UHGV virus genome: UHGV-1547525
Direction: 5' to 3' (one strand)
Source of the DNA: a virus
Length of the DNA stretch: 22,008 bases
The notes below the pieces were generated by a model that had not been told where the DNA came from, searched no databases, and worked only from the letters and a program-made list of their open reading frames with translations. Shown here one piece after another: positions 4,366 to 18,699 of this stretch. A program made the position numbers and the translations under genes. How positions within the stretch are numbered: position 1 is the first letter of the stretch; the number at the start of each line of letters is the position of its first letter.

Positions 4366-4814
4366 ATCGTATCCTGCTTCTGCTGCTCTTTACCCTGGGC
4401 GATGCTGGCTGCTTCTGCAAGGATCTGCCAGTACAACTCTGGATTCTGCTTAAGCAGCGCGATCCCTCGTTCTGCCGTATATTCCAGTGCAACCTCAACA
4501 CCATTAACCAGTTCACCAACCCCTTTCCAGTCTTTCAGCAGATAACGAGCGGCATTATCAATGAGTAAATCATCAACAGAATCCACCTCGGAAACCTTTG
4601 AAATATCAAACTCCTTCGTTCCGACGTGCAAACTGGCATCCATTTTCTCAATGTGGCGACGGATTAATGCATTACGGGAGCGATACTGATCGTTATCGCT
4701 GCTTGCCACCAACAGTTTTAACCCGTCTACAGGTTTTAAGTCCTTCATTGGCGTAAACCAGCGTTCTCCACCAATGATAATTTTCTGATTAAGAATAAAC
4801 ATCCATAACCTCAT
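4353..4814 (-). CDS. Tail assembly chaperone (gpG-like)
   Basis: 153-aa acidic ORF ending ...DTIKKP* with the slippery heptamer in its last codons. ATG at 4814, or ATG at 4802 which has a better GAGG Shine-Dalgarno. Sits between the major tail protein and the tape measure. Confidence 0.75.
   Translation of the reverse strand: MRLWMFILNQKIIIGGERWFTPMKDLKPVDGLKLLVASSDNDQYRSRNALIRRHIEKMDASLHVGTKEFDISKVSEVDSVDDLLIDNAARYLLKDWKGVGELVNGVEVALEYTAERGIALLKQNPELYWQILAEAASIAQGKEQQKQDTIKKP
4359..4365 (-). promoter_or_regulatory. -1 programmed ribosomal frameshift slippery heptamer A-AAA-AAG
   Basis: Minus-strand sequence GAT ACG ATA AAA AAG CCA TAG: an X-XXY-YYZ heptamer two codons before the G stop, with the -1 frame continuing open into the T region. 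Confidence 0.7.
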
Positions 4815-4894: not shown

Positions 4895-5824
4895 TCACGG
4901 CAGCCGGGGAATTTTTTTTCTGGTTATCGTAGGTGCTTCATCTGCTGCGGTAATGCTCAATTGAACCTGGATAATGTCGCTATTACCCCCATCAGGCCAT
5001 TCACCTGACACCTGAACCTTCGGGAAACTGAAAGTGTATGCCCCCTCTCCATTCGAAAGCGTGAAGCTGAACGGAACTGTTTCTCCAGTCAGTGTTTTAC
5101 TCCAGATTTCCCACGCGGCTTTAGACCATGAAAGCGTCACCGTACCGGACGGTGTAAAAGTAGTCGGAATATTTGCTCCTGCATAAGGCGAGCCAGTCCC
5201 GATACAACGCTGTGTCTGGAGTTTGTTATCGAACTGAATATCAAAACTGTCGATACAAAAACCGTTACCTCCGGCAACACCATTCAGGCTTACTGCTGAA
5301 ACCTCCTTAAACGAATAACGTAGCTTTCCTGCACTATCCACAGGTTCGCCTTTGATAAAATTCGTATCATCGGCCTTTGATTCCCAGTCCAGTCCGGCAA
5401 AGGTTACGGTCGCTGTAATATCGCCGTCGTTAGGGATCTGCATTTTCCATGAGCCAACCTGCGCTCCTCTGACGACAGAGGCAATTCCGACATCGGACGC
5501 ATAGGTCGCCAGAGAAAATGTTATTCGCTCATTCCCCATTGTCAGAGAATCGCCTGACCATTCCGCGCCGAAACAGGATGCAAGAAAATCATCATGTTGA
5601 CCCCAGCGAAATTTGGTACCAACATCACCGCCGACATCCACAGTGCCAGGCGTCGCCCCCTGAGCCATCCGGGAGCCACCAATCTCATTATTTTCGCCTT
5701 TATTCTGGGTGGGTTTTACTCCCCAGCTTGTGCGTTTTAATAAACTCCAGTCACCACTTGCTGGCGTAGTGCCTGCAACCGTCTCCCGGATAAATGCCGA
5801 GATAACCTTTGCACCTGAACTCAC
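4895..5824 (-). CDS. Major tail (tube) protein, putative
   Basis: 309-aa ORF, GTG start at 5824 preceded by AGGAGG at 5-6 nt spacing. Gly/Thr/Ser-rich composition. Assigned by synteny (immediately upstream of the G/G-T chaperone genes); not lambda gpV-like in sequence. Confidence 0.6.
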   Translation of the reverse strand: MSSGAKVISAFIRETVAGTTPASGDWSLLKRTSWGVKPTQNKGENNEIGGSRMAQGATPGTVDVGGDVGTKFRWGQHDDFLASCFGAEWSGDSLTMGNERITFSLATYASDVGIASVVRGAQVGSWKMQIPNDGDITATVTFAGLDWESKADDTNFIKGEPVDSAGKLRYSFKEVSAVSLNGVAGGNGFCIDSFDIQFDNKLQTQRCIGTGSPYAGANIPTTFTPSGTVTLSWSKAAWEIWSKTLTGETVPFSFTLSNGEGAYTFSFPKVQVSGEWPDGGNSDIIQVQLSITAADEAPTITRKKIPRLP

Positions 5825-9728: not shown

Positions 9729-10844
9729 TTAAATCCCTGCTTTTCTGAATACCTGTGCATCACGCTCACGGAGCTGCTTCAGCGTCAGCCATTCGCCTTT
9801 ATCGGTGTAAAATTCATCTGGCGACATACCACCATCCCGAATCAGCTTTGCTCGGGTTTCCCCCACAATCTGTTTTTGTCTGGTGTAAGGCTGACGCAAA
9901 AACCATTCCCTGTAGGTTGTATCTCCGGCCACCACGCCATCCATGCTGGCCCGCTCAGCCGGGGAAATATCGCGAACATCAATACCCAGTTCCTTCGCTG
10001 ATTTCAGAATGAACGTTTCCGTTGAGCGGCAGCAGAAATGAATTTTTCCCGGCCCCTGCAAATAAGGCACGCTGTGACCTACAGGTTTATTATTCAGCGT
10101 ATATTTGAGGCGATCCCTGATTCGACATTGTGGCGTAGTACGATTATCAAGCGTTGATAACCATTGCTTACCCTTAATCAAATCATTATTCGCGCTGGCA
10201 AAACTCTCACGGGCAGTAGCAGCAAGATGTCCAACCGCTGTTTTTGCAATGCTGGCCGCATTAGCCCGGCTCATCTGCAATGCACCATCCTGAAATCCCT
10301 TACTGACATGTCCCCGAATTTTTCTTGCGATCTGCTCATTGGTATCCCCCAACAAAAAACCCTGACGCACCGTATTTGTTATGCGTCTGAGCCGATCCGC
10401 CTCAAGATCTGAGGCCCACTCACTGAGCAGTCGTCCCTGGAATGGTCGCGCCATTGCAGCGGCATAAAGTGCATCAGGAGAGATACCAACCAGAGGGTGA
10501 ACATCAGCAACAAAATCAGGTAGCATAGAATCAAACAGACTTAACTGATAACCAGCCTCATAAACTGCCAGCTCGTTCAGCTCTCCGGAGAGACTGGTAA
10601 ACATGCTGTTAATAGCAGTGCGGTTAACCTTTCTGACGCTCGCCAGAAGTGACTCCAGGCGCTTAACGGTAAAATTACCTGGATCGAGGCTGTCCAGTGC
10701 TATCAGCAGGCGAGCAGTAAGTTCCGCATCGCTGTCATTCAGTATTTTCACCATTCTGGCAGCCACGCCAGTGCTATAGCGGGATATCCAGACTGCATGA
10801 GCAATTGATTCATCACGCAGCCGTTCATTCACGGTTTGCATCAT
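9729..10844 (-). CDS. Head morphogenesis protein, Mu F-like / SPP1 gp7-like minor head protein
   Basis: 371-aa ORF immediately after the portal gene (20-nt overlap). Size and position match the portal-associated Mu-F-like family; the family call is from recollection of that family's architecture. Confidence 0.7.
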   Translation of the reverse strand: MMQTVNERLRDESIAHAVWISRYSTGVAARMVKILNDSDAELTARLLIALDSLDPGNFTVKRLESLLASVRKVNRTAINSMFTSLSGELNELAVYEAGYQLSLFDSMLPDFVADVHPLVGISPDALYAAAMARPFQGRLLSEWASDLEADRLRRITNTVRQGFLLGDTNEQIARKIRGHVSKGFQDGALQMSRANAASIAKTAVGHLAATARESFASANNDLIKGKQWLSTLDNRTTPQCRIRDRLKYTLNNKPVGHSVPYLQGPGKIHFCCRSTETFILKSAKELGIDVRDISPAERASMDGVVAGDTTYREWFLRQPYTRQKQIVGETRAKLIRDGGMSPDEFYTDKGEWLTLKQLRERDAQVFRKAGI

Positions 10845-12233: not shown

Positions 12234-13535
12234 TTAAATCCGAAGTGATGTGACTCTTCCGGTCGGTTTGACAATAGGGAATTGCTTAACGATGAAATAA
12301 CCTCCGGCATCATTCGGGTGATCATTGCCAGATTTTTTATCAGGCTCCCCCTTCTCATCCCAGACCTGTTGCTCCAGAGATTCGGCATATAACGGGCAAC
12401 GCTTCACATTAACTTTATAGCGACGCTCACCATTGGCATTGCAGAACATTGCATTCATTGAGTTAACGCGATCTTTTACTGGCGGGTTCGAGCTGTTCAC
12501 CACAACGTTAAAACCAGCCTGCTTAAGCTGGGCTATATCCGTCGTACTTGCGTTACTTGATTTTCTGGAATCCCCGGAAGCATCTGGATAAATATAAATT
12601 TCCCTCACTTTCCGGTAATCATTCCCATCATACAGCCAGAAGCGTTCTTTAATGATGCGGATCATATCCGGCGTATCGTAGGCATTGATGATTTCAGTTA
12701 CCGCACATGGAAGCCCCAAACGCAGCACATGGACGATTCCCGCCATCTTTCCAACGTTAAAATCCATCCCAATATAAATCGGCTCCCCTGGCTGCTCCAC
12801 TTCTTCGCAATTATTCAGTTTCCGGTCAAACTGATGGTAAACAGTACCACTTGTCAGGTTAGTAAACTGTCCTCGAAGATAGGCTTTAATCAGCTCTGGA
12901 GGGTATGATTCAAGAAGCGAAGGAATGTAATCTGCTGGCAGGTTCTTTTCATTATCGAAAGTAGATGCCTGCACCAGACCATACAGTGAGGCCAGCTCTG
13001 TTTTTTCACGCACGGCTTTAACAAACTGCTCGTAGACAAATTTGAATCCTTCCGGCGTGGTTGTAACGTCAATACCGTTGCGAAGTCCATCAATCTTATA
13101 ACGCATACGTGCAATTATCTTGCGCCACGCCGTTCTGGCTTTTTCCTTCGGCAAAATGTCCAGTTCATCCACCAACGCATTACCAATTTTGAAACCGACG
13201 ATCGTTTGTGGCTTCTCCATCGATCTGCAGATAGTGGTTCCCCGATACTGGCGTCCGTAATAAAAGTGAACCTCTTTATTTCCCTCATTAATTTTTACGT
13301 TCAATCCCCAGTCAGCAGCAACTTCTTCCACTGTAGGGTAAAAAATATCGCGAATTTGGGGATACGTTGGCGCAAAATATCCCTGATTTATACCTGGATG
13401 CTCCCAAATCCCCTTGCATATGCCGCCACACCCAACCCATGTTTTGCCCGAGCCAAAACCAGCAATATAGGCTTTAAATTTATGGGGCATTGAAAGAAAT
13501 CGCGCCTGAGGCACATTAAGCGTCGGAGAGATCAT
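12234..13535 (-). CDS. Terminase large subunit
   Basis: Walker A-like GFGSGKT near the N-terminus, size about 433 aa, follows the small terminase with a short overlap. ATG at 13535 has the best AAGGAG spacing; the ORF track extends to a GTG at 13544. Confidence 0.85.
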   Translation of the reverse strand: MISPTLNVPQARFLSMPHKFKAYIAGFGSGKTWVGCGGICKGIWEHPGINQGYFAPTYPQIRDIFYPTVEEVAADWGLNVKINEGNKEVHFYYGRQYRGTTICRSMEKPQTIVGFKIGNALVDELDILPKEKARTAWRKIIARMRYKIDGLRNGIDVTTTPEGFKFVYEQFVKAVREKTELASLYGLVQASTFDNEKNLPADYIPSLLESYPPELIKAYLRGQFTNLTSGTVYHQFDRKLNNCEEVEQPGEPIYIGMDFNVGKMAGIVHVLRLGLPCAVTEIINAYDTPDMIRIIKERFWLYDGNDYRKVREIYIYPDASGDSRKSSNASTTDIAQLKQAGFNVVVNSSNPPVKDRVNSMNAMFCNANGERRYKVNVKRCPLYAESLEQQVWDEKGEPDKKSGNDHPNDAGGYFIVKQFPIVKPTGRVTSLRI

Positions 13536-14610
13536 CTTCATCACTCCTTACTCTGGCATCAACCACATTAATATTGATCGCCACAGGCTGGGGATGTTCA
13601 TTATCTTCCACCGTTTCGATCTCTTTGCGCAGCTTCTGGTTTTCCATTCTGCGCCGTTCAATTTCCAGTTCCTGTAGCCGTTTATCTGCACATAAAGCCC
13701 CGCCAGCAGAAAACAAACGCAACAATTCACGCCGGGCGGCAGCCTTATCCTCCAGCAGGATCTCAACGCCGAATTTTCCGAATTTTGCCCCTGCATATAA
13801 TTGCCGCGCATCCCCATCAAGCAGAGTGGTATCAGCCATATAAAGCTGTCCCGTTCCCTCACCGCAGCACTTCGGGCAGTCCGGATTGGGTATGGCGTTA
13901 TCAACAAAGCCGAGGCCTCCATATTCCGGTTCGGGTTTGCCATCTCTGGAAGCCTGCGCCGCTGCCTTGTCGAATTCTGCTATATCGCGCCACTGGTAGA
14001 GATGATTCTCGCCCCAGCAATAACGGCAGTTAACACGGCGAAATTGTGCAAGCTGATTGGGGTCGGCCAGGACAATAGCCATCAACTGACTCACTAGTAA
14101 ATCCAGGTCTGCGGTATAGCGTTTCTGGTACTGATTGCGGAAGTAGCTGATAGCGCGAAAAACCCTGGCATTTCTAAGCATACGACTGGCGTTGCTGTTA
14201 GCTGTCGCACCTTGCCCCTCATAACCGGCTAGTCGGTACGCCTCTGTCGGCTTTTTACCCTGAGCAACAAGCATCGCAAACTTAGCCTGCTGGTCAGAAA
14301 TGCCGAATTCATCGGGACAGAACGAAAATTCCTCCGCGTCGCCCTCATTCAGGCCCGCATCGAATACTGGCTTTTTTTCCTGAGATTTTTCGTTCCGCTT
14401 TTGTGCAGTCTGCGCAGATTTTTTCTGCGCACTTTTTTGCGCAGTTTTGCACATTTCTGTCTGCGCATTTTTCGGAGTTTTTTTGATGTAACGACGGGCT
14501 GTTGCGTAATTCAGTCCCCTTGCTTCACACCATGCCACCGGAGATATACCGGAGCGGGTGTATTCAGCAATATACTCCTGCTGCAACGCCCCCCAGTCCG
14601 GTCTGCTCAT
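13516..14610 (-). CDS. Terminase small subunit (composite: N-terminal HTH, Terminase_2-like segment, Cys-rich C-terminal region)
   Basis: QQAKFAMLVAQGKKPTEAYRLAGYEGQGATANSNASRMLRNARVFRAISYF resembles the small-terminase (Terminase_2-type) motif. N-terminal HTH-like ISPVAWCEARGLNYATARRYI. C-terminal CRYC...CPKCC cysteine cluster. Directly upstream of the large terminase. Confidence 0.7.
   Translation of the reverse strand: MSRPDWGALQQEYIAEYTRSGISPVAWCEARGLNYATARRYIKKTPKNAQTEMCKTAQKSAQKKSAQTAQKRNEKSQEKKPVFDAGLNEGDAEEFSFCPDEFGISDQQAKFAMLVAQGKKPTEAYRLAGYEGQGATANSNASRMLRNARVFRAISYFRNQYQKRYTADLDLLVSQLMAIVLADPNQLAQFRRVNCRYCWGENHLYQWRDIAEFDKAAAQASRDGKPEPEYGGLGFVDNAIPNPDCPKCCGEGTGQLYMADTTLLDGDARQLYAGAKFGKFGVEILLEDKAAARRELLRLFSAGGALCADKRLQELEIERRRMENQKLRKEIETVEDNEHPQPVAININVVDARVRSDEDDLSDA
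14381..14485. repeat. Array of TGCGCA(G) hexamers alternating with phased T/A tracts inside terS
   Basis: Plus strand cTGCGCAGatttttt cTGCGCActttttt GCGCAGtttt gCACAtttctgt cTGCGCAttttt cggagttttttt: motif starts at about 14411, 14426, 14438, 14448 (variant) and 14462, separated by T-runs at 10-15 bp intervals. Encodes a K/A/Q-rich low-complexity linker. Confidence 0.5.
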
Positions 14611-14613
14611 CAG

Positions 14614-14865
14614 TTAGTCCTGATTTTTATCCACCCTGAGTAGTTCGCGCAGAGCAAAGGCATCCCCTTTTCTGGCAAGCTTAAACAATGCCGCTCGTAA
14701 CTCGGCTTCACCTTTCGCTCTGCCCTTACGGATGGCCGCATAAAAATCTGTCATTGCTTCCCGATTTTCTTTCAGTCGGTTCAGATCAACATCCAGAACG
14801 TCAGCGATTTGTTGTGCAGTCATCCGGCACGCTGCCAGAGACTCGACTTTCGAATACGGAATCAT
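14614..14865 (-). CDS. Small hypothetical protein, possibly helix-turn-helix DNA-binding
   Basis: 83-aa ORF, ATG at 14865 with GGGGGTG Shine-Dalgarno. Ends 3 nt before the terS start. Overlaps the 3' end of the upstream glycosyltransferase-like gene by 65 nt. No motif recognised with confidence. Confidence 0.35.
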   Translation of the reverse strand: MIPYSKVESLAACRMTAQQIADVLDVDLNRLKENREAMTDFYAAIRKGRAKGEAELRAALFKLARKGDAFALRELLRVDKNQD

Positions 14866-15733
14866 TTGTCACCCCCATTGATATGCAGGGTGTCTTCTTC
14901 CTGTATTTTTCGTGAAGGATTTTTACTGCAGCGTTGTTCCAGGTGACCTGATGGTGAATGCGTTTATGGCTGGCACCCATCAGTGAGATTTTTACGCACG
15001 ACGGCGCATACATGACGGAGTAAAAACTTTTAACGTAGGTTCCGGAATCCAGATACAGCTCGGTCATTCCGCCGCTGTTTTTCTGCGTCTGTTTCTGCCC
15101 TAACTGGACAGCACCGATCGTCATAAACAATTCACCACAGCGACCGAGATTCGTGTACGTATTCACATCCTCGTTAATGCGCCCCATGAATGAGAACGGT
15201 CGATCAACCGAACAGATAAAGCTGTTCATTGCCTTGCGTTTCACCCACGAAGCATGGCCGCCATTGTCACCAAGAAAATCCCCGCCCTGCGACATAGCGA
15301 TGGAAAGAGCAGGTATTGATTCGTAGTACGCCAGCATTTCAGAAAGGATCGCATCCAGTTTCCTTATCGGAAAATAGGCCTGGTCATAGTTGCGATCCAC
15401 CCGAAACTGGAACTCGTGATAATCATCATCGAGCTGAATGAAGTATTTACACCCGACCAGTTTTGCCAGGTCGAAACAGGCATTACGGGCGTAAAAAATT
15501 GAGCGGCGGTCACAGAAATTATCGGCTTCGTCAAAACGACTGGCGATATCGGCTTTGGAAAACACCAGCACCTGTTCACCAAATTCAGCCATGTACTGAT
15601 TCCGTGTCTTATCTTCATCATCAACAACGATAAAAATTTTCCCGGTATAGCCAGCACGACGCAACGTCCGGTAAGTCAGAACTTTGTCCGGTCGCCCGTG
15701 AGTCAGAATAAAGGCGCAAAAATCATCACGCAT
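14801..15733 (-). CDS. Soluble GT-A fold (GT2-like) glycosyltransferase-like protein
   Basis: Ordered GT2 signature: FCAFILTHGRPDKV (N-terminal strand), KIFIVVDDED, ARN...LAKLVGCKYFIQLDDDY (DxD). No obvious transmembrane segment. ATG at 15733 preceded by GAGGAGGAGGAA and overlapping the upstream ParB-like gene by 8 nt. Confidence 0.55.
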   Translation of the reverse strand: MRDDFCAFILTHGRPDKVLTYRTLRRAGYTGKIFIVVDDEDKTRNQYMAEFGEQVLVFSKADIASRFDEADNFCDRRSIFYARNACFDLAKLVGCKYFIQLDDDYHEFQFRVDRNYDQAYFPIRKLDAILSEMLAYYESIPALSIAMSQGGDFLGDNGGHASWVKRKAMNSFICSVDRPFSFMGRINEDVNTYTNLGRCGELFMTIGAVQLGQKQTQKNSGGMTELYLDSGTYVKSFYSVMYAPSCVKISLMGASHKRIHHQVTWNNAAVKILHEKYRKKTPCISMGVTNDSVFESRVSGSVPDDCTTNR

Positions 15734-16517
15734 ATTCCTCCTCCTCACCACCATGCATGATCTCCACCATGCGCTGCGTCATCCGGACAAATCCATTTTC
15801 AATAGCCTGCTGATAATCAATGATCACCAGCGCCGACTCCTCGAAAAAACACTGAATTTCAGAGGGGGCGTGAGCGTAATAGTCCGCAATTCTGCTGAAA
15901 TTAAACACCGTGTGACGTTCTGCCGCACACAGGAGGAATTTCTCAATATCAGGCTCAAGGGACGCCGAACGTATCCGGCTGATCAGCTCCTGAGTTTTCG
16001 TATCGTCGTACAGTTCACTGATATCCGGTTTACCGCCCGACGGCTCATAAACAGGCGTATCAATTTTCGTCGTATACGGCTCCTCCTCATTTCCTGTACC
16101 GGGCAAAACATCCGTCAACAGTTCATCAATTTCTGTCGGGCCGAAGCCTGTCAGGGAGACATCAAAATCAGCATTGATTAGGTCCGACAGCTCCATCCGC
16201 AACAGATCTTCATCCCAGCCAGCATTCATCGGTAGGCGATTATCTGCCAGGCGGTACGCCTTTTTCTGCTCATCCGTCAGGCCAGACAGAACAATGACCG
16301 GAACAGAATCCATTTTGAGCATTTCAGCCGCCATAACACGACCGTGACCCGCAATAATTTCGCCCTTTTCGTCAATCAGCACCGGATTAGTCCAGCCGAA
16401 TTGCTTAATACTTTCTACCAGTTGTGCCACCTGCTCAGTACTGTGCGTCCTGGCGTTGTGCGCATACGGTGACAATTCTTGTAATGGGCGATAGACTATC
16501 TTTAATTTCTCGCTCAT
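15726..16517 (-). CDS. ParB-like nuclease domain protein with unassigned acidic C-terminal half
   Basis: N-terminal ~100 aa YRPLQELSPYAHNARTHSTEQVAQLVESIKQFGWTNPVLIDEKGEIIAGHGRVMAA matches the ParB/Srx-fold N-domain pattern as I recall it. Remaining ~150 aa unassigned. Confidence 0.7.
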   Translation of the reverse strand: MSEKLKIVYRPLQELSPYAHNARTHSTEQVAQLVESIKQFGWTNPVLIDEKGEIIAGHGRVMAAEMLKMDSVPVIVLSGLTDEQKKAYRLADNRLPMNAGWDEDLLRMELSDLINADFDVSLTGFGPTEIDELLTDVLPGTGNEEEPYTTKIDTPVYEPSGGKPDISELYDDTKTQELISRIRSASLEPDIEKFLLCAAERHTVFNFSRIADYYAHAPSEIQCFFEESALVIIDYQQAIENGFVRMTQRMVEIMHGGEEEEYA

Positions 16518-16654: not shown

Positions 16655-18112
16655 TTAGGAGCGCCAAAAAAAACCTGAAAACAATATAATAACAGGATAA
16701 ATTTCAAGGCGACCAAGAATCATAGCTATGCACATTAAATATTTTGCAATGTCATTAAGCACTCCGAATGACGATGCAGTAGCCCCAAAACCTAATCCCA
16801 TATTATTAATACATGCAGCCACTGTTGCAAATGATGTAAGAAAATCATATCCCATACCATTTAACACCAGTATAAAAAACACCGTGAAGAGAGTATAAAG
16901 AAAAAAGAAACTCCATACAGACCTCATTACACGATCTGTAACTATCTTCCCTCCTACATTTACACTCAACAACGCTCTGGGATGAGAAAGCTGATTTATC
17001 TCGTGTTTGCTTTGTTTGAAAAGTATAAGAAATCGAAGTGACTTAATTCCACCACAAGTTGAACCTATACATCCCCCAAAGAAACTTGACGACAGCAAAA
17101 ACACTATCGTGTGCGTGGGCCAGTTTGCATAATCCTGCGTAGCTAAACCATTATCAGTGAGCATGGAGCTGGCAAGAAAAAACGAATGAATAAAACTTCC
17201 ATGCAAGTCATACATACCTATATGCCAGACCTGGAAAGAGGTAACAATGATCACCCCTAAGGCTATTAACAGAAAGAAACGAAGTTCAATATCTCTGATT
17301 AAAGGTTTTATCGTTTTCCTGCTAATAACAATATACCAAAGAGTGAAGTTGAAAGCCGATAGCAGGGAAAAAGAACCAGCCACCAGCTCAACCAAATAGT
17401 TATTAAAATATCCGATACTCTCGCTATGAGTTGAGAAACCACCAAGCGAAACTGTGGAAATCCCGTGACAAATAGCATCAAACAAAGGCATTCCTGCAAG
17501 TCTATAACAGACAATACAAGCAATACCTAATAAAGAATAAGTTATCCACAGTGTCCGTGACGTATCGGCCAGGCGGGGAGTGAGTTTGTCATCCTTAAAT
17601 GGCCCCGGCATTTCTGACTGATAAAGCTTTGCACCACCAATACCCAATAATGGCAATACAGCAACCGCCAGAACAATAACTCCTAAACCACCTATAAAAT
17701 TTAACTGTGACCGATAGTACAAATATGCCCGAGGTAATGAACTAACATCATCAATTACAGTTGCTCCTGTTGTTGTTATTCCAGAAACCCCTTCAAACAG
17801 AGCATCAATGAACGTTAAATTAAGTTCTGAGTCAATCCATAAAGGGAATGCACTAATAACAGAAAACAAAATCCAAAACATTACAATTATAATAAACCCA
17901 TCACGGGTACGTAATTGAATGCCAGATTTCTTAGTTGTATACCACGCTCCGCCACCAATGCAAAAAAATATAACGAAAGTTATAAAGAAAACGAACAGGC
18001 TTTTTTCTTTATAAAACAATGCTACAACCATTGGTGGCAACATTGAAAGACTATAGAGCCAAACCAGGAACCCACACATATGAGTAACAACTCTTACATG
18101 AGATGTATTCAT
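16655..18112 (-). CDS. trkG: Trk-family potassium uptake membrane protein (TrkG of Rac-type prophages)
   Basis: 485-aa polytopic membrane protein from ATG at 18112 (MNTSHVRVVTHMCGFLVWLY...); the ORF-track start at 18130 is a TTG extension. TrkH/TrkG-like repeated pore-loop architecture. Visibly AT-rich relative to the flanking phage genes. Adjacent to Rz/Rz1 remnants, as I recall for E. coli K-12 Rac. Confidence 0.8.
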   Translation of the reverse strand: MNTSHVRVVTHMCGFLVWLYSLSMLPPMVVALFYKEKSLFVFFITFVIFFCIGGGAWYTTKKSGIQLRTRDGFIIIVMFWILFSVISAFPLWIDSELNLTFIDALFEGVSGITTTGATVIDDVSSLPRAYLYYRSQLNFIGGLGVIVLAVAVLPLLGIGGAKLYQSEMPGPFKDDKLTPRLADTSRTLWITYSLLGIACIVCYRLAGMPLFDAICHGISTVSLGGFSTHSESIGYFNNYLVELVAGSFSLLSAFNFTLWYIVISRKTIKPLIRDIELRFFLLIALGVIIVTSFQVWHIGMYDLHGSFIHSFFLASSMLTDNGLATQDYANWPTHTIVFLLSSSFFGGCIGSTCGGIKSLRFLILFKQSKHEINQLSHPRALLSVNVGGKIVTDRVMRSVWSFFFLYTLFTVFFILVLNGMGYDFLTSFATVAACINNMGLGFGATASSFGVLNDIAKYLMCIAMILGRLEIYPVIILFSGFFWRS

Positions 18113-18249
18113 ATCTAAATATTCTTTCAATTATAACCACCTTGCTGCAATATTATGATTATACTGTATAAAATTTAACTCCTCTTAGATCTTACTTCAC
18201 TGTTCCTTATGAAACAATCATCAAAATGAATCATATTGTAGTTAAGATT

Positions 18250-18699
18250 TTACTTTAAACACTGCTCGGTTATGTATTGCTGAGCACCTTCAAGTTGGGC
18301 CTGCATCATTACCAGTCGTTCCCGGAGGGTGAAATAATCCCGTTCAGCGGTGTCTGCCAGTCGGGGGGAGGCTGCATTATCCACGCCGGAGGCGGTGGTG
18401 GCTTCACGCACTGACTGACAGACTGCTTTGATGTGCAACCGACGACGACCAGCGGCAACATCATCACGCAGAGCATCATTTTCAGCTTTCGCATCAGCTA
18501 ACTCCTTCGTGTATTTTGCATCGAGCGCAGCAACATCACGCTGACGCATCTGCATGTCAGTAATTGCCGCGTTCGCCAGCTTCAGTTCTCTGGCATTTTT
18601 GTCGCGCTGTTCTTTGTAGGCGATGGCGTTATCACGGTAATGATTAACACCCCATGACAGGCAGACGACGATGCAGATAACCAGAGCGGAGATACCAGA
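18250..18699 (-). pseudogene. rzpR: Rz (i-spanin) remnant lacking its 5' end and start codon (rzpR-like)
   Basis: From ...[33 protein letters not shown]... through [47 protein letters not shown]...EQCLK the translation tracks lambda Rz as I recall it. The similarity breaks about 7 codons in, and there is no in-frame ATG/GTG/TTG upstream before a TGA. Confidence 0.8.
18309..18494 (-). CDS. rzoR: Rz1 (o-spanin) lipoprotein, embedded in the Rz reading frame
   Basis: 61-aa [59 protein letters not shown]... with lipobox-like VVGC and a proline run, matching lambda Rz1 as I recall it. Embedded in the +1 frame of Rz. Confidence 0.8.

Follow-up and report, generated by a model that had tools for sequence, protein, structure and literature searches.

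The question raised by this locus is why a short palindromic hexamer, TGCGCA, is repeated inside the gene for a phage small terminase subunit, and whether the repeats are part of the site at which packaging begins. The window analysed is the whole 22,008 nt stretch of virus genome UHGV-1547525. The array had been predicted to lie within terS, and this was confirmed: it is inside a minus-strand gene with Terminase_2 and phrog_51 matches. The genes and protein segments concerned are as follows.

13516..14610, - strand: terS, small terminase subunit, 364 aa (Pfam Terminase_2, phrog_51; RefSeq relatives carry the same annotation)
14479..14610, - strand: PacA-like N-terminal helix-turn-helix domain, codons 1-44 of terS (AF2, phrog_1711 match)
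14494-14496, - strand: residue R39 of TerS, in the predicted third helix; tracks hexamer type
14326..14478, - strand: low-complexity K/A/Q-rich linker, codons 45-95, predicted disordered (translation, AF2)
13648..14247, - strand: Terminase_2 core of TerS, aa 122-321 (Pfam PF03592, E = 3.7e-08)
12234..13544, - strand: terL, large terminase subunit (Pfam Terminase_6N, 3.7e-33; Terminase_6C, 3.4e-10)

The PF03592 match of TerS scores 34.5 bits, above the curated cut-off of 26.1, and the phrog_51 profile 'terminase small subunit' matches at 1.7e-75. Genes for a Terminase_6-type TerL, a portal, a Mu F-like protein and a P22-type coat protein are found nearby, and this gene content is consistent with a headful phage. 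Immediately upstream of terS are a ParB/Srx gene and a predicted TAGT DNA-glycosyltransferase gene. In Klebsiella-type and other relatives this position is occupied by lysis genes, without the ParB/TAGT genes. The Rac-like prophage type is present in approximately 900 of 5426 complete E. coli genomes. In the deposited sequences of related phage genomes terS is located away from the record ends, which are therefore uninformative on the termini.

The repeats occupy six slots near the 5' end of the gene, numbered here in the direction of terS transcription.

14402..14467, 66 bp within terS: array with six slots for the palindromic hexamer TGCGCA, the part of pac to which TerS is proposed to bind
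14462..14467: slot 1, exact TGCGCA, codons N-A-Q, reading frame 2; intact in 27/27 distinct Rac-like sequences
14448..14453: slot 2, degenerate in the window (TGCACA on the + strand, coding ATG TGC AAA); intact in 21/27 Rac-like relatives
14438..14443: slot 3, exact TGCGCA; intact in 27/27 Rac-like sequences
14426..14431: slot 4, exact TGCGCA; intact in 21/27 Rac-like sequences
14411..14416: slot 5, exact TGCGCA; intact in 26/27 Rac-like sequences
14402..14407: slot 6, degenerate in the window (TGTGCA on the + strand); exact TGCGCA in 17/27 Rac-like relatives
14372..14484, + strand: nine T-runs of 3-7 nt (coding-strand A-runs, mostly Lys codons) interleaving and flanking the hexamers

Direct reading and a pattern search both give four exact copies (14411, 14426, 14438 and 14462) and two with one mismatch (14402 and 14448), with start-to-start distances of 9, 15, 12, 10 and 14. 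The original prediction of about five copies over approximately 100 bp was correct as to the repeat, but the array is of four exact and two degenerate copies and is shorter, at 66 bp. There are 12 exact copies of TGCGCA in the window, and the eight outside the array are scattered. By a Poisson estimate, at least four copies in 57 nt are expected with a probability of 7.6e-9 per position, or about 1.7e-4 for the window; among 2000 first-order Markov random windows none reached four copies, the maximum being three, seen twice. In the Rac-like clade consensus all six hexamers are exact (coding nt 144, 158, 168, 180, 195 and 204), and two of them have been lost from the window's array. In the relatives slot 2 is an exact TGCGCA read in a different frame (ATG CGC AAA, Met-Arg-Lys). 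From its start at codon 48 (coding nt 144), four codons past the end of the N-terminal domain, the array encodes the first part of the K/A/Q linker. No second hexamer cluster is present in the terS of the window, where the next exact TGCGCA is some 780 nt away at 13626, although one is found in some Klebsiella-type relatives. The only match to the IHF consensus within the window is at 10176, with none near the array, and GATC is absent from all of 14381-14485.

The domain encoded just before the array is predicted by AF2 to have helices at aa 6-20, 24-30 and 35-38 (pLDDT 72-80), followed by linker residues 44-93 with pLDDT below 50. The model of TerS is moderately confident only in these three helices and in the helix-turn-helix region of Terminase_2; overall it is poor (mean pLDDT 50), and a Foldseek search of it against the PDB gave no significant match. 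The best E given for the structural searches is 0.57, and a sequence search of solved structures gave only a weak match, to the Pam5 small terminase (E = 0.23). Pfam has no meaningful match to the N-terminal 50 aa of TerS, and for the PacA N-terminus there are generic helix-turn-helix matches below threshold, such as HTH_23 and HTH_28. The PacA family profile, phrog_1711, matches aa 6-80 of the window's TerS at 3.8e-05 and PacA itself at 4e-202. PacA matches phrog_370, the family of the 933W TerS, at 1.9e-04, and BLASTP between the two N-termini gives E = 0.002. With E-values of 1e-3 to 1e-5, these matches lend modest support to homology between the N-terminal domain of TerS and that of PacA.

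It had been suggested that conservation of the array be checked in related terS genes. The array is kept in 52 homologues carrying the motif A-R-R-[YH]-[IV]-K, from Escherichia, Serratia, Xenorhabdus, Pantoea, Klebsiella, Enterobacter, Citrobacter and other Enterobacterales genera, and all 64 of 64 near-identical Rac-like loci have four to six hexamers. The 126 nt after the domain in the 52 homologues contain 237 copies of TGCGCA, a density of 36 per kb, compared with 0.6 per kb over the remainder of the loci. No homologue has fewer than two copies (mode 5), and 50 of the 52 have distinct linker DNAs. Pairs of hexamers 7 nt apart are frequent. By reading frame the 237 copies divide into 179, 47 and 11, and are translated as Ala-Gln, x-Arg-x or Cys-Ala. 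Whichever of the three frames they are in, hexamers throughout the family have A-rich flanks. Because copies are found in all three frames, it is the DNA that is selected and not the peptide. Exact hexamers are kept across genera while spacers and peptide vary. The array is also about half as variable as the remainder of the linker (12 of 66 against 27 of 76 variable sites, Fisher p = 0.024). When triple-TGCGCA arrays were sampled from viral contigs, 71 of 121 were within 450 nt of the N-terminal domain, as were 45 of 50 arrays with at least five hexamers. The TGCGCA cluster is non-random, is under selection at the DNA level and is linked to the N-terminal domain.

The type of hexamer also varies with the domain. 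In 11 homologues residue 39 is Lys rather than Arg, and these have arrays of TGCGAA or TGCGAATTCGCA in place of TGCGCA. These TGCGAA-type arrays have a density of 40 per kb against 0.57 per kb, with TGCGCA essentially absent. Among positions 1-43, residue 39 is the only column that separates the R-type from the K-type domains, and K-type domains are as near to R-type domains as to one another, in one example with 37 of 38 residues identical. In Pasteurella Pmp11 there are eight copies of TGCGAA, every one on the coding strand, and in the terS of Stx phage 933W the domain is followed immediately by four [CT]GATCAT repeats. Across the loci compared, a different amino acid at residue 39 goes with a different hexamer, although the loci are phylogenetically non-independent and the co-variation may therefore reflect only a few evolutionary events.

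The array is probably, at a likelihood of roughly 0.7, the portion recognised by TerS within a headful pac site that is P1-like in its logic. The N-terminal helix-turn-helix (aa 1-44), an extra domain that a disordered linker, about 50 residues long, tethers to the oligomeric Terminase_2 core, would bind the hexamers. Several such tethered domains of one TerS oligomer could bind several hexamers simultaneously, and the avidity of multiple domains would tolerate the irregular hexamer spacing of 7-16 bp. The complex of TerS and hexamers would mark concatemeric phage DNA, with TerL making the first cut nearby and then translocating the DNA. Headful packaging would proceed towards terL, by analogy with other phages. 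The binding is read as starting packaging, rather than serving only regulation, because the homologous arrangement in phage P1 has been experimentally proven to do so. The comparative evidence strongly supports the prediction of a terminase recognition or packaging site within terS, and it is from this evidence that we infer one. The searchable literature on TGCGCA and terminase, on Klebsiella prophage and 933W pac sites and on the phage record names contained no description of the array that could be found, and papers on lateral transduction and capsid-packaged DNA yielded no mapped pac site for this phage group.

An array to which TerS binds could have a role in autoregulation, whether in place of packaging or besides it. 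As an operator, the array would for example allow TerS to regulate terS-terL from within its own coding region. The evidence that the array is linked to the domain and would bind protein does not in itself reveal the effect of such binding, and the site is within a transcribed gene. There are also TGCGCA triplets in viral contigs, such as that of L161, that resemble intergenic operators and are without the domain. Against this, the homologous arrangement in P1 is a proven pac site, and it would be unusual for a simple operator to have as many as five or six sites. The domain itself is found at the N-terminus of small terminases of several core types and not on regulators; single-linkage clustering of the TerS C-terminal parts merges most proteins into one mosaic group and is therefore too coarse for counting these types. 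A purely regulatory array is unlikely.

Less probable still is a structural element: bent DNA, an intrinsic terminator in antisense orientation, or a hairpin in the mRNA made of paired palindromic hexamers. The runs of 3-7 T that had been noted after the hexamers are there on the + strand, but their centres are 8.5-21 bp apart with a mean of about 13 bp, and not near the helical repeat as had been supposed; phased tracts would recur every 10-11 bp or so. Under a Bolshoy-type wedge model the array has a net bend of 21 degrees, a value exceeded by 71% of windows, and an end-to-end ratio of 0.93 (9th-percentile shortening) against 0.42 for a phased control. The suggested intrinsic curvature was rejected on this unphased spacing and the ordinary modelled bend, neither of which indicates a notable planar bend. 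On the + strand, 14411-14431 forms an 8-bp hairpin followed by a T-run and matches the rho-independent terminator pattern; it is antisense and inside a coding gene, and there is no + strand gene upstream of it to terminate. For either strand, RNA of the array is better folded than shuffled controls (z of -4.4 and -3.1), which is inevitable in the presence of several GC-rich palindromes. Relatives with non-palindromic direct repeats, such as Pasteurella Pmp11, keep the array yet cannot form these hairpins, and hexamer pairs spaced by 7 nt would give a 1-nt loop. RNA structure and an antisense terminator are both considered improbable, since the palindromic hexamers account for each of them and neither is conserved in the direct-repeat relatives.

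Even less likely is that a low-complexity (S/T)AQK peptide, generated by slippage or duplication, gave rise to the array incidentally through codon bias. Tandem Repeats Finder does identify weak 12- and 15-nt periods, the linker is K/A/Q-rich and predicted to be disordered, and most copies are read in the frame for Ala-Gln. However, about a quarter are in the other two frames, where they encode different residues. The wobble position is also fixed: the spelling T-GCG-CA for Ala-Gln, including the wobble T of the preceding codon, accounts for 88% of cases in the linker and 32% elsewhere in terS. In addition, exact hexamers outlast the changing spacers and peptide, and the type of hexamer follows the amino acid at residue 39. 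Reading frames and wobble usage largely refute this explanation, and they bear out the earlier view that the nucleotide pattern is selected rather than the peptide.

The least probable explanation is that the hexamers are targets of DNA modification or restriction, for example by the adjoining ParB/Srx and TAGT gene products: GCGC is present within TGCGCA and methylation of the P1 pac hexamers controls cleavage (PMC10028697), but the Klebsiella-type and other relatives that have lysis genes in place of these neighbours share the arrays, which follow the N-terminal domain and not the adjacent genes.

With packaging as the preferred function, the array is a candidate pac site that can be recognised from sequence, for Rac-like E. 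coli prophages and for many Enterobacterales relatives. No pac site is known for most headful phages. If the packaging function is true, the start and direction of lateral and generalized transduction would be predictable, and packageable phagemids and synonymous 'pac-dead' helper prophages could be designed. The pairing of Arg39 with TGCGCA and Lys39 with TGCGAA is a natural candidate specificity switch, usable for testing the sequence specificity of terminases. The chances are even that the helix-turn-helix and the hexamer array behind it form a portable packaging-specificity cassette, moving by recombination between TerS cores, with a code of Arg39-TGCGCA, Lys39-TGCGAA and GATC-containing hexamers in 933W and P1. 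In such a cassette, a domain and its own binding sites would be encoded back to back, the sites being within the codons of a sequence-tolerant linker. Were this to be the case, the P1 pac principle would hold in a large group of Enterobacterales prophages, Stx phages among them. It would then be possible to predict pac sites and the direction of transduction from sequence, and to re-engineer packaging specificity.

Four known systems can be compared with the array. In lambda cosB, sites R1-R3 are bound by gpNu1 and there is also an IHF site, IHF-assisted bending being part of the mechanism. The likeness is in repeated sites for a small-terminase helix-turn-helix beside a cutting site, and in both, as proposed here, repetition of the sites would provide specificity through multivalency. 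Lambda differs in being a cos system with defined cohesive ends, and its sites are upstream of the Nu1 gene rather than within it.

The G1P protein of SPP1/SF6 and the window's TerS share the Terminase_2 core (PF03592), but the latter has the additional N-terminal domain and the array of exact hexamers. The SPP1 pac boxes are not known to consist of TGCGCA. In this headful system the pac site (pacL/pacR boxes) has multiple TerS contact points around the first cut, and specific DNA binding by the TerS is weak and disputed (PMC9611059). The pac site of P22, also a headful phage, is inside the small-terminase gene (PMC9611059, PMC11260489), and the TerS family of P22 is unrelated to that of the window. 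The original prediction had cited P22 and P1 together as examples of packaging sites built from repeated hexamers. The citation of P1 is apt (PMC10028697), but that of P22 was wrong in detail, since its pac is a single 22-bp asymmetric sequence with no repeat array (PMC9611059).

The closest system is that of P1, in which pac consists of the HEX4 and HEX3 arrays of TGATCA within pacA, is recognised by the PacA-PacB pacase and has been experimentally proven; its cleavage is governed by methylation of the hexamers, which are Dam sites, and synonymous 'pac-dead' recoding of pacA has already been done for a helper prophage (PMC10028697). The TGATCA copies are at codons 65-77 and 112-118 of pacA, flanking the mapped pac cuts (PMC10028697 for the cuts). 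There are several differences. The hexamer here is TGCGCA and not TGATCA, and therefore lacks GATC and Dam control. There is a single six-slot cluster rather than four and three hexamers flanking a cut, and no IHF consensus at the array, where P1 has an IHF site between its clusters. The array begins four codons after the domain, compared to about 20 in P1, and the remainder of the protein is a Terminase_2 TerS rather than PacA. In both, however, the site or candidate site is inside the gene of the recognition subunit, 3' of the codons for an N-terminal helix-turn-helix that has the common motif '...LN..TARRY...', and is made of several palindromic TGNNCA hexamers with irregular short spacings in more than one reading frame. 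The N-terminal domains are themselves connected through profile searches. This suggests that the hexamer array of terS is very probably a relative of the P1 pac site, recurring in many enterobacterial phages.

The small terminase gene terS carries a non-random array of TGCGCA hexamers that is selected at the DNA level. The window is a Rac-type lambdoid prophage, in which terS is placed as follows.

Features of the window around terS
13516-14610, minus strand: terS, small terminase subunit, 364 aa
12234-13544, minus strand: large terminase subunit, Terminase_6-type, downstream of terS
Further downstream, minus strand: portal, Mu F-like protein, scaffold-like protein, P22-type coat, tail tube and tape-measure
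14614-14865, minus strand: small ORF, 83 aa, upstream of terS
14801-15754, minus strand: TAGT glycosyltransferase homologue, upstream of terS
15726-16517, minus strand: ParB/Srx protein, upstream of terS
16655-18130, minus strand: trkG-like gene, upstream of terS
18250-18555, minus strand: truncated Rz gene, upstream of terS
Also upstream of terS: Q-like antiterminator

Exact copies of the palindrome TGCGCA are present at 14411, 14426, 14438 and 14462, with one-mismatch copies at 14402 and 14448, while eight further exact copies are scattered elsewhere in the 22-kb window. Four copies in 57 nt were seen in 0 of 2000 first-order random windows. The hexamer array is therefore confirmed, its span being 66 bp, with four exact and two degenerate copies, rather than the five or so copies over 100 bp of the original prediction. 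Runs of 3–7 T alternate with the hexamers. The array begins four codons past residue 44, reads AAT GCG CAG ACA GAA ATG TGC AAA ACT GCG CAA AAA AGT GCG CAG AAA AAA TCT GCG CAG ACT GCA CAA on the coding strand and encodes NAQTEMCKTAQKSAQKKSAQTAQ. Its second slot is the degenerate ATG TGC AAA; most close relatives have ATG CGC AAA, which is an exact hexamer in a different reading frame. On the plus strand, 14411-14431 forms a perfect 8-bp hairpin (TGCGCAGA / TCTGCGCA) with a 5-nt loop, followed by CTTTTTT, which fits the intrinsic-terminator pattern, antisense to terS.

TerS matches phrog_51 (1.7e-75) and, over aa 122-321, Pfam Terminase_2 (3.7e-08). Among complete E. coli genomes, 552 have the gene at 99% identity or more and another 313 at 90–95%. 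The 83-aa ORF between the glycosyltransferase gene and terS is hypothetical in the RefSeq annotation and matches positions 145-218 of 319 of phrog_309 (8e-23), a small-terminase family other than that of TerS; it may represent a remnant, or else a small subunit-like protein in its own right. The TET-associated glycosyltransferase homologue (PF20691 at 8e-35; phrog_842 'beta-glucosyl-HMC-alpha-glucosyltransferase' at 1e-103) adjoins the gene for the ParB/Srx N-terminal-domain protein, whose N-terminus gives a further match, to a phage family named 'DNA methyltransferase'. Together, these two genes may serve Rac-like prophages as a module for DNA modification; no TET/JBP gene is found in the 22-kb window. 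The trkG-like gene encodes a TrkH-family potassium transporter (PF02386 at 6e-144) and the adjacent Rz gene covers profile positions 26-125 only, the pair being a Rac-type cargo arrangement.

Within the Rac-like clade, the near-identical terS genes that include this copy, the array is missing from none of the 64 loci examined, all of which have 4–6 hexamers; the loss of the array from close terS relatives, which would have refuted the original prediction, is thus not seen. The consensus is six, and slots 2 and 6 have each been lost in the window's copy by a single transition. Variable sites number 12/66 in the array, 18/132 in the domain (residues 1–44) and 27/76 in the rest of the linker, so that array variability is similar to that of the domain and about half that of the remaining linker (Fisher p = 0.024). 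In the E. coli variants L115 and L126, divergence from the Rac type begins immediately past the array. In Escherichia phage Rac-SA53 (L006, locus 1268-2296), terS is annotated as a two-gene fusion by deletion, in which the N-terminal domain is gone together with the first half of the array; immediately upstream are heat-labile enterotoxin IIa genes.

For a wider comparison, a set of 66 loci encoding a relative of residues 1–44, one per species genome, was extended with further loci taken from annotated records of phages and E. coli and from viral contigs. The R-type homologues, with Arg at residue 39 and a domain ending A-R-R-[Y/H]-[I/V]-K, comprise 52 loci from Escherichia, Shigella, Serratia, Xenorhabdus, Pantoea, Klebsiella, Raoultella, Enterobacter, Citrobacter, Kluyvera, Pectobacterium and other genera, with 50 distinct linker DNAs. 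In the 126 nt past the domain there are 237 exact TGCGCA (36 per kb; the other 269 kb of these loci have 0.6 per kb); every one of the 52 has at least two copies, most commonly five, although these are counts over phylogenetically non-independent loci. All three reading frames are used (179, 47 and 11 hexamers), encoding Ala-Gln, x-Arg-x or Cys-Ala. Pairs 7 nt apart are frequent, and spacing peaks family-wide at 7, 9, 12 and 14 nt. Ala-Gln is spelled T-GCG-CA, counting the wobble base of the codon before Ala, in 88% of cases in the linker versus 32% elsewhere in terS. Peptide-level selection does not account for the frames, the wobble spelling or the exact other-frame hexamer that most close relatives have in slot 2, which bears out the proposal that the nucleotide pattern rather than the protein is selected.

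The hexamer sequence follows one residue of the domain. K-type homologues, with Lys at residue 39 (n=11), are essentially without TGCGCA past the domain and instead have 3–7 copies of TGCGAA, often inside a 12-bp palindrome, TGCGAATTCGCA, at 40 per kb past the domain versus 0.57 per kb outside. Residue 39 is the sole position in 1–43 with no residue common to the two types. Over positions 1–38 the K-type are as close to the R-type as to other K-type, and loci L014 and L017 are identical at 37/38. Pasteurella phage Pmp11, with Lys39 but still with Lys44, has eight TGCGAA in several frames, which points to residue 39, not 44, as the determinant of hexamer type. Such co-variation is the pattern predicted by protein-DNA recognition, its naive Fisher support being overstated because the loci are phylogenetically non-independent.

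The array is always coupled in cis to this small N-terminal helical domain. With a shallow alignment as input, AlphaFold2 places helices at 6-20, 24-30 and 35-38 (pLDDT 72–80), a pattern that a small helix-turn-helix would fit. For residues 44-93 pLDDT is under 50, and the other helical stretch of moderate confidence, 99-170, is part of Terminase_2. Structure searches with TerS gave no significant match, so the fold assignment rests on predicted helices and sequence relationships. Domain relatives form 188 clusters (E up to 0.001) among 1.84 billion representative proteins, almost always at residues 1–44. In proteins P0142, P0199, P0228, P0229, P0267 and P0268 the domain is matched in 4–7 separate stretches, as tandem similar helix-turn-helix copies that are not N-terminal.

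In the reverse direction, 121 viral-contig arrays with three or more TGCGCA in close succession were sampled among the matches listed, and 71 of them are no more than 450 nt from the domain; for arrays of five or more hexamers, again among the matches listed, the figure is 45/50. Most of the exceptions are either exact tandem repeats in coding sequence or arrays truncated where a contig stops. An unrelated viral contig without the TerS domain, L161, has two similar intergenic triplets (4593-4626 and 5463-5496; TGCGCA-N9-TGCGCA-N7-TGCGCA) just upstream of genes, which look like operators of another TGCGCA-binding protein. The domain and array are joined to different TerS bodies.

TerS bodies joined to the domain and array
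phrog_51/Terminase_2: the window, Klebsiella phages and one Yersinia phage
phrog_370: 933W and Pmp11
232-243-aa type: adjoins a PBSX-type large terminase

The array is very probably under selection as a set of sites bound by the N-terminal domain of TerS, and we give a probability of about 0.7 to its being the recognition part of a headful pac site. Several tethered domains would bind several irregularly spaced hexamers at once, the uneven spacing being accommodated by a disordered tether, about 50 residues long, to the oligomeric core. This multivalent complex would bring in TerL for the first cut, with which headful packaging would begin. The linker peptide probably tolerates sequence change, so that its codons can double as binding sites.

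A purely regulatory operator is an improbable alternative. A structural role, as bent DNA, antisense terminator or mRNA hairpin, is a weak candidate and quite unlikely. The phased T-tracts originally proposed as a bending element have a mean spacing of 13 bp and the curvature given by a wedge model is ordinary; the hairpin and terminator patterns would be an automatic outcome of GC-rich palindromes and are missing in direct-repeat relatives. That the array is a by-product of the peptide or of slippage is very unlikely, since the reading frames and the wobble spelling go most of the way to refuting it. A tie to the neighbouring ParB/TAGT genes is also very unlikely, since relatives carry the same array without them.

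The pac recognition reading has a counterpart in phage P1, where the pac site is a homologous arrangement. PacA starts with a similar domain (...NLNPNTARRYLRAF); in pacA, TGATCA hexamers at codons 65-77 and at codons 112-118 surround the annotated IHF site as well as the cleavage positions mapped for pac. Experiments have established these hexamers as the pac site of P1, whose genome is packaged less well when they are changed synonymously (PMC10028697). Profile searches tie the domains of the window TerS, 933W TerS and PacA together, by sequence similarity with modest E-values: the PacA family phrog_1711 matches the window TerS at aa 6-80 (3.8e-05) and also four relatives, PacA matches the 933W TerS family phrog_370 (1.9e-04), and BLASTP of the window TerS and PacA N-termini gives E = 0.002.

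Small terminases of Stx phages hold distant homologues of the domain (~40% identity). In 933W terS (L155, locus 1501-2307), [C/T]GATCAT recurs four times directly past the domain, once every 12 nt; each repeat has a Dam site, and the run encodes IDHEIDHKTDHEIDH. This hints at a P1-like pac array in Stx phages, possibly one sensitive to methylation. For the Stx-type Escherichia phage vB_EcoP_phi296 (L154), the linear genome as deposited stops inside terS, 787 nt in; a note in the record mentions a circularly permuted genome and joined ends.

No description of the TGCGCA array was found in the searchable literature, older subscription-journal papers being outside its scope. Many Klebsiella/Enterobacter-type terS (L013, L017, L019, L034, L035) have a second cluster of 2–4 TGCGCA about 165–190 nt past the first, in codons for 'NVAQAIAQQQKAS', a two-cluster layout that can be likened to HEX4/HEX3 of P1; no such second cluster is present in terS of the window, L021 or L028. 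By analogy, the window array would work like the P1 pac site. However, P1 has GATC in its hexamers, whereas those of the window do not and are thus not under Dam control. The P1 site is also bipartite with an IHF site, the window array being neither, and the terminase bodies differ. The window array is therefore a variant rather than a member of the P1 type.
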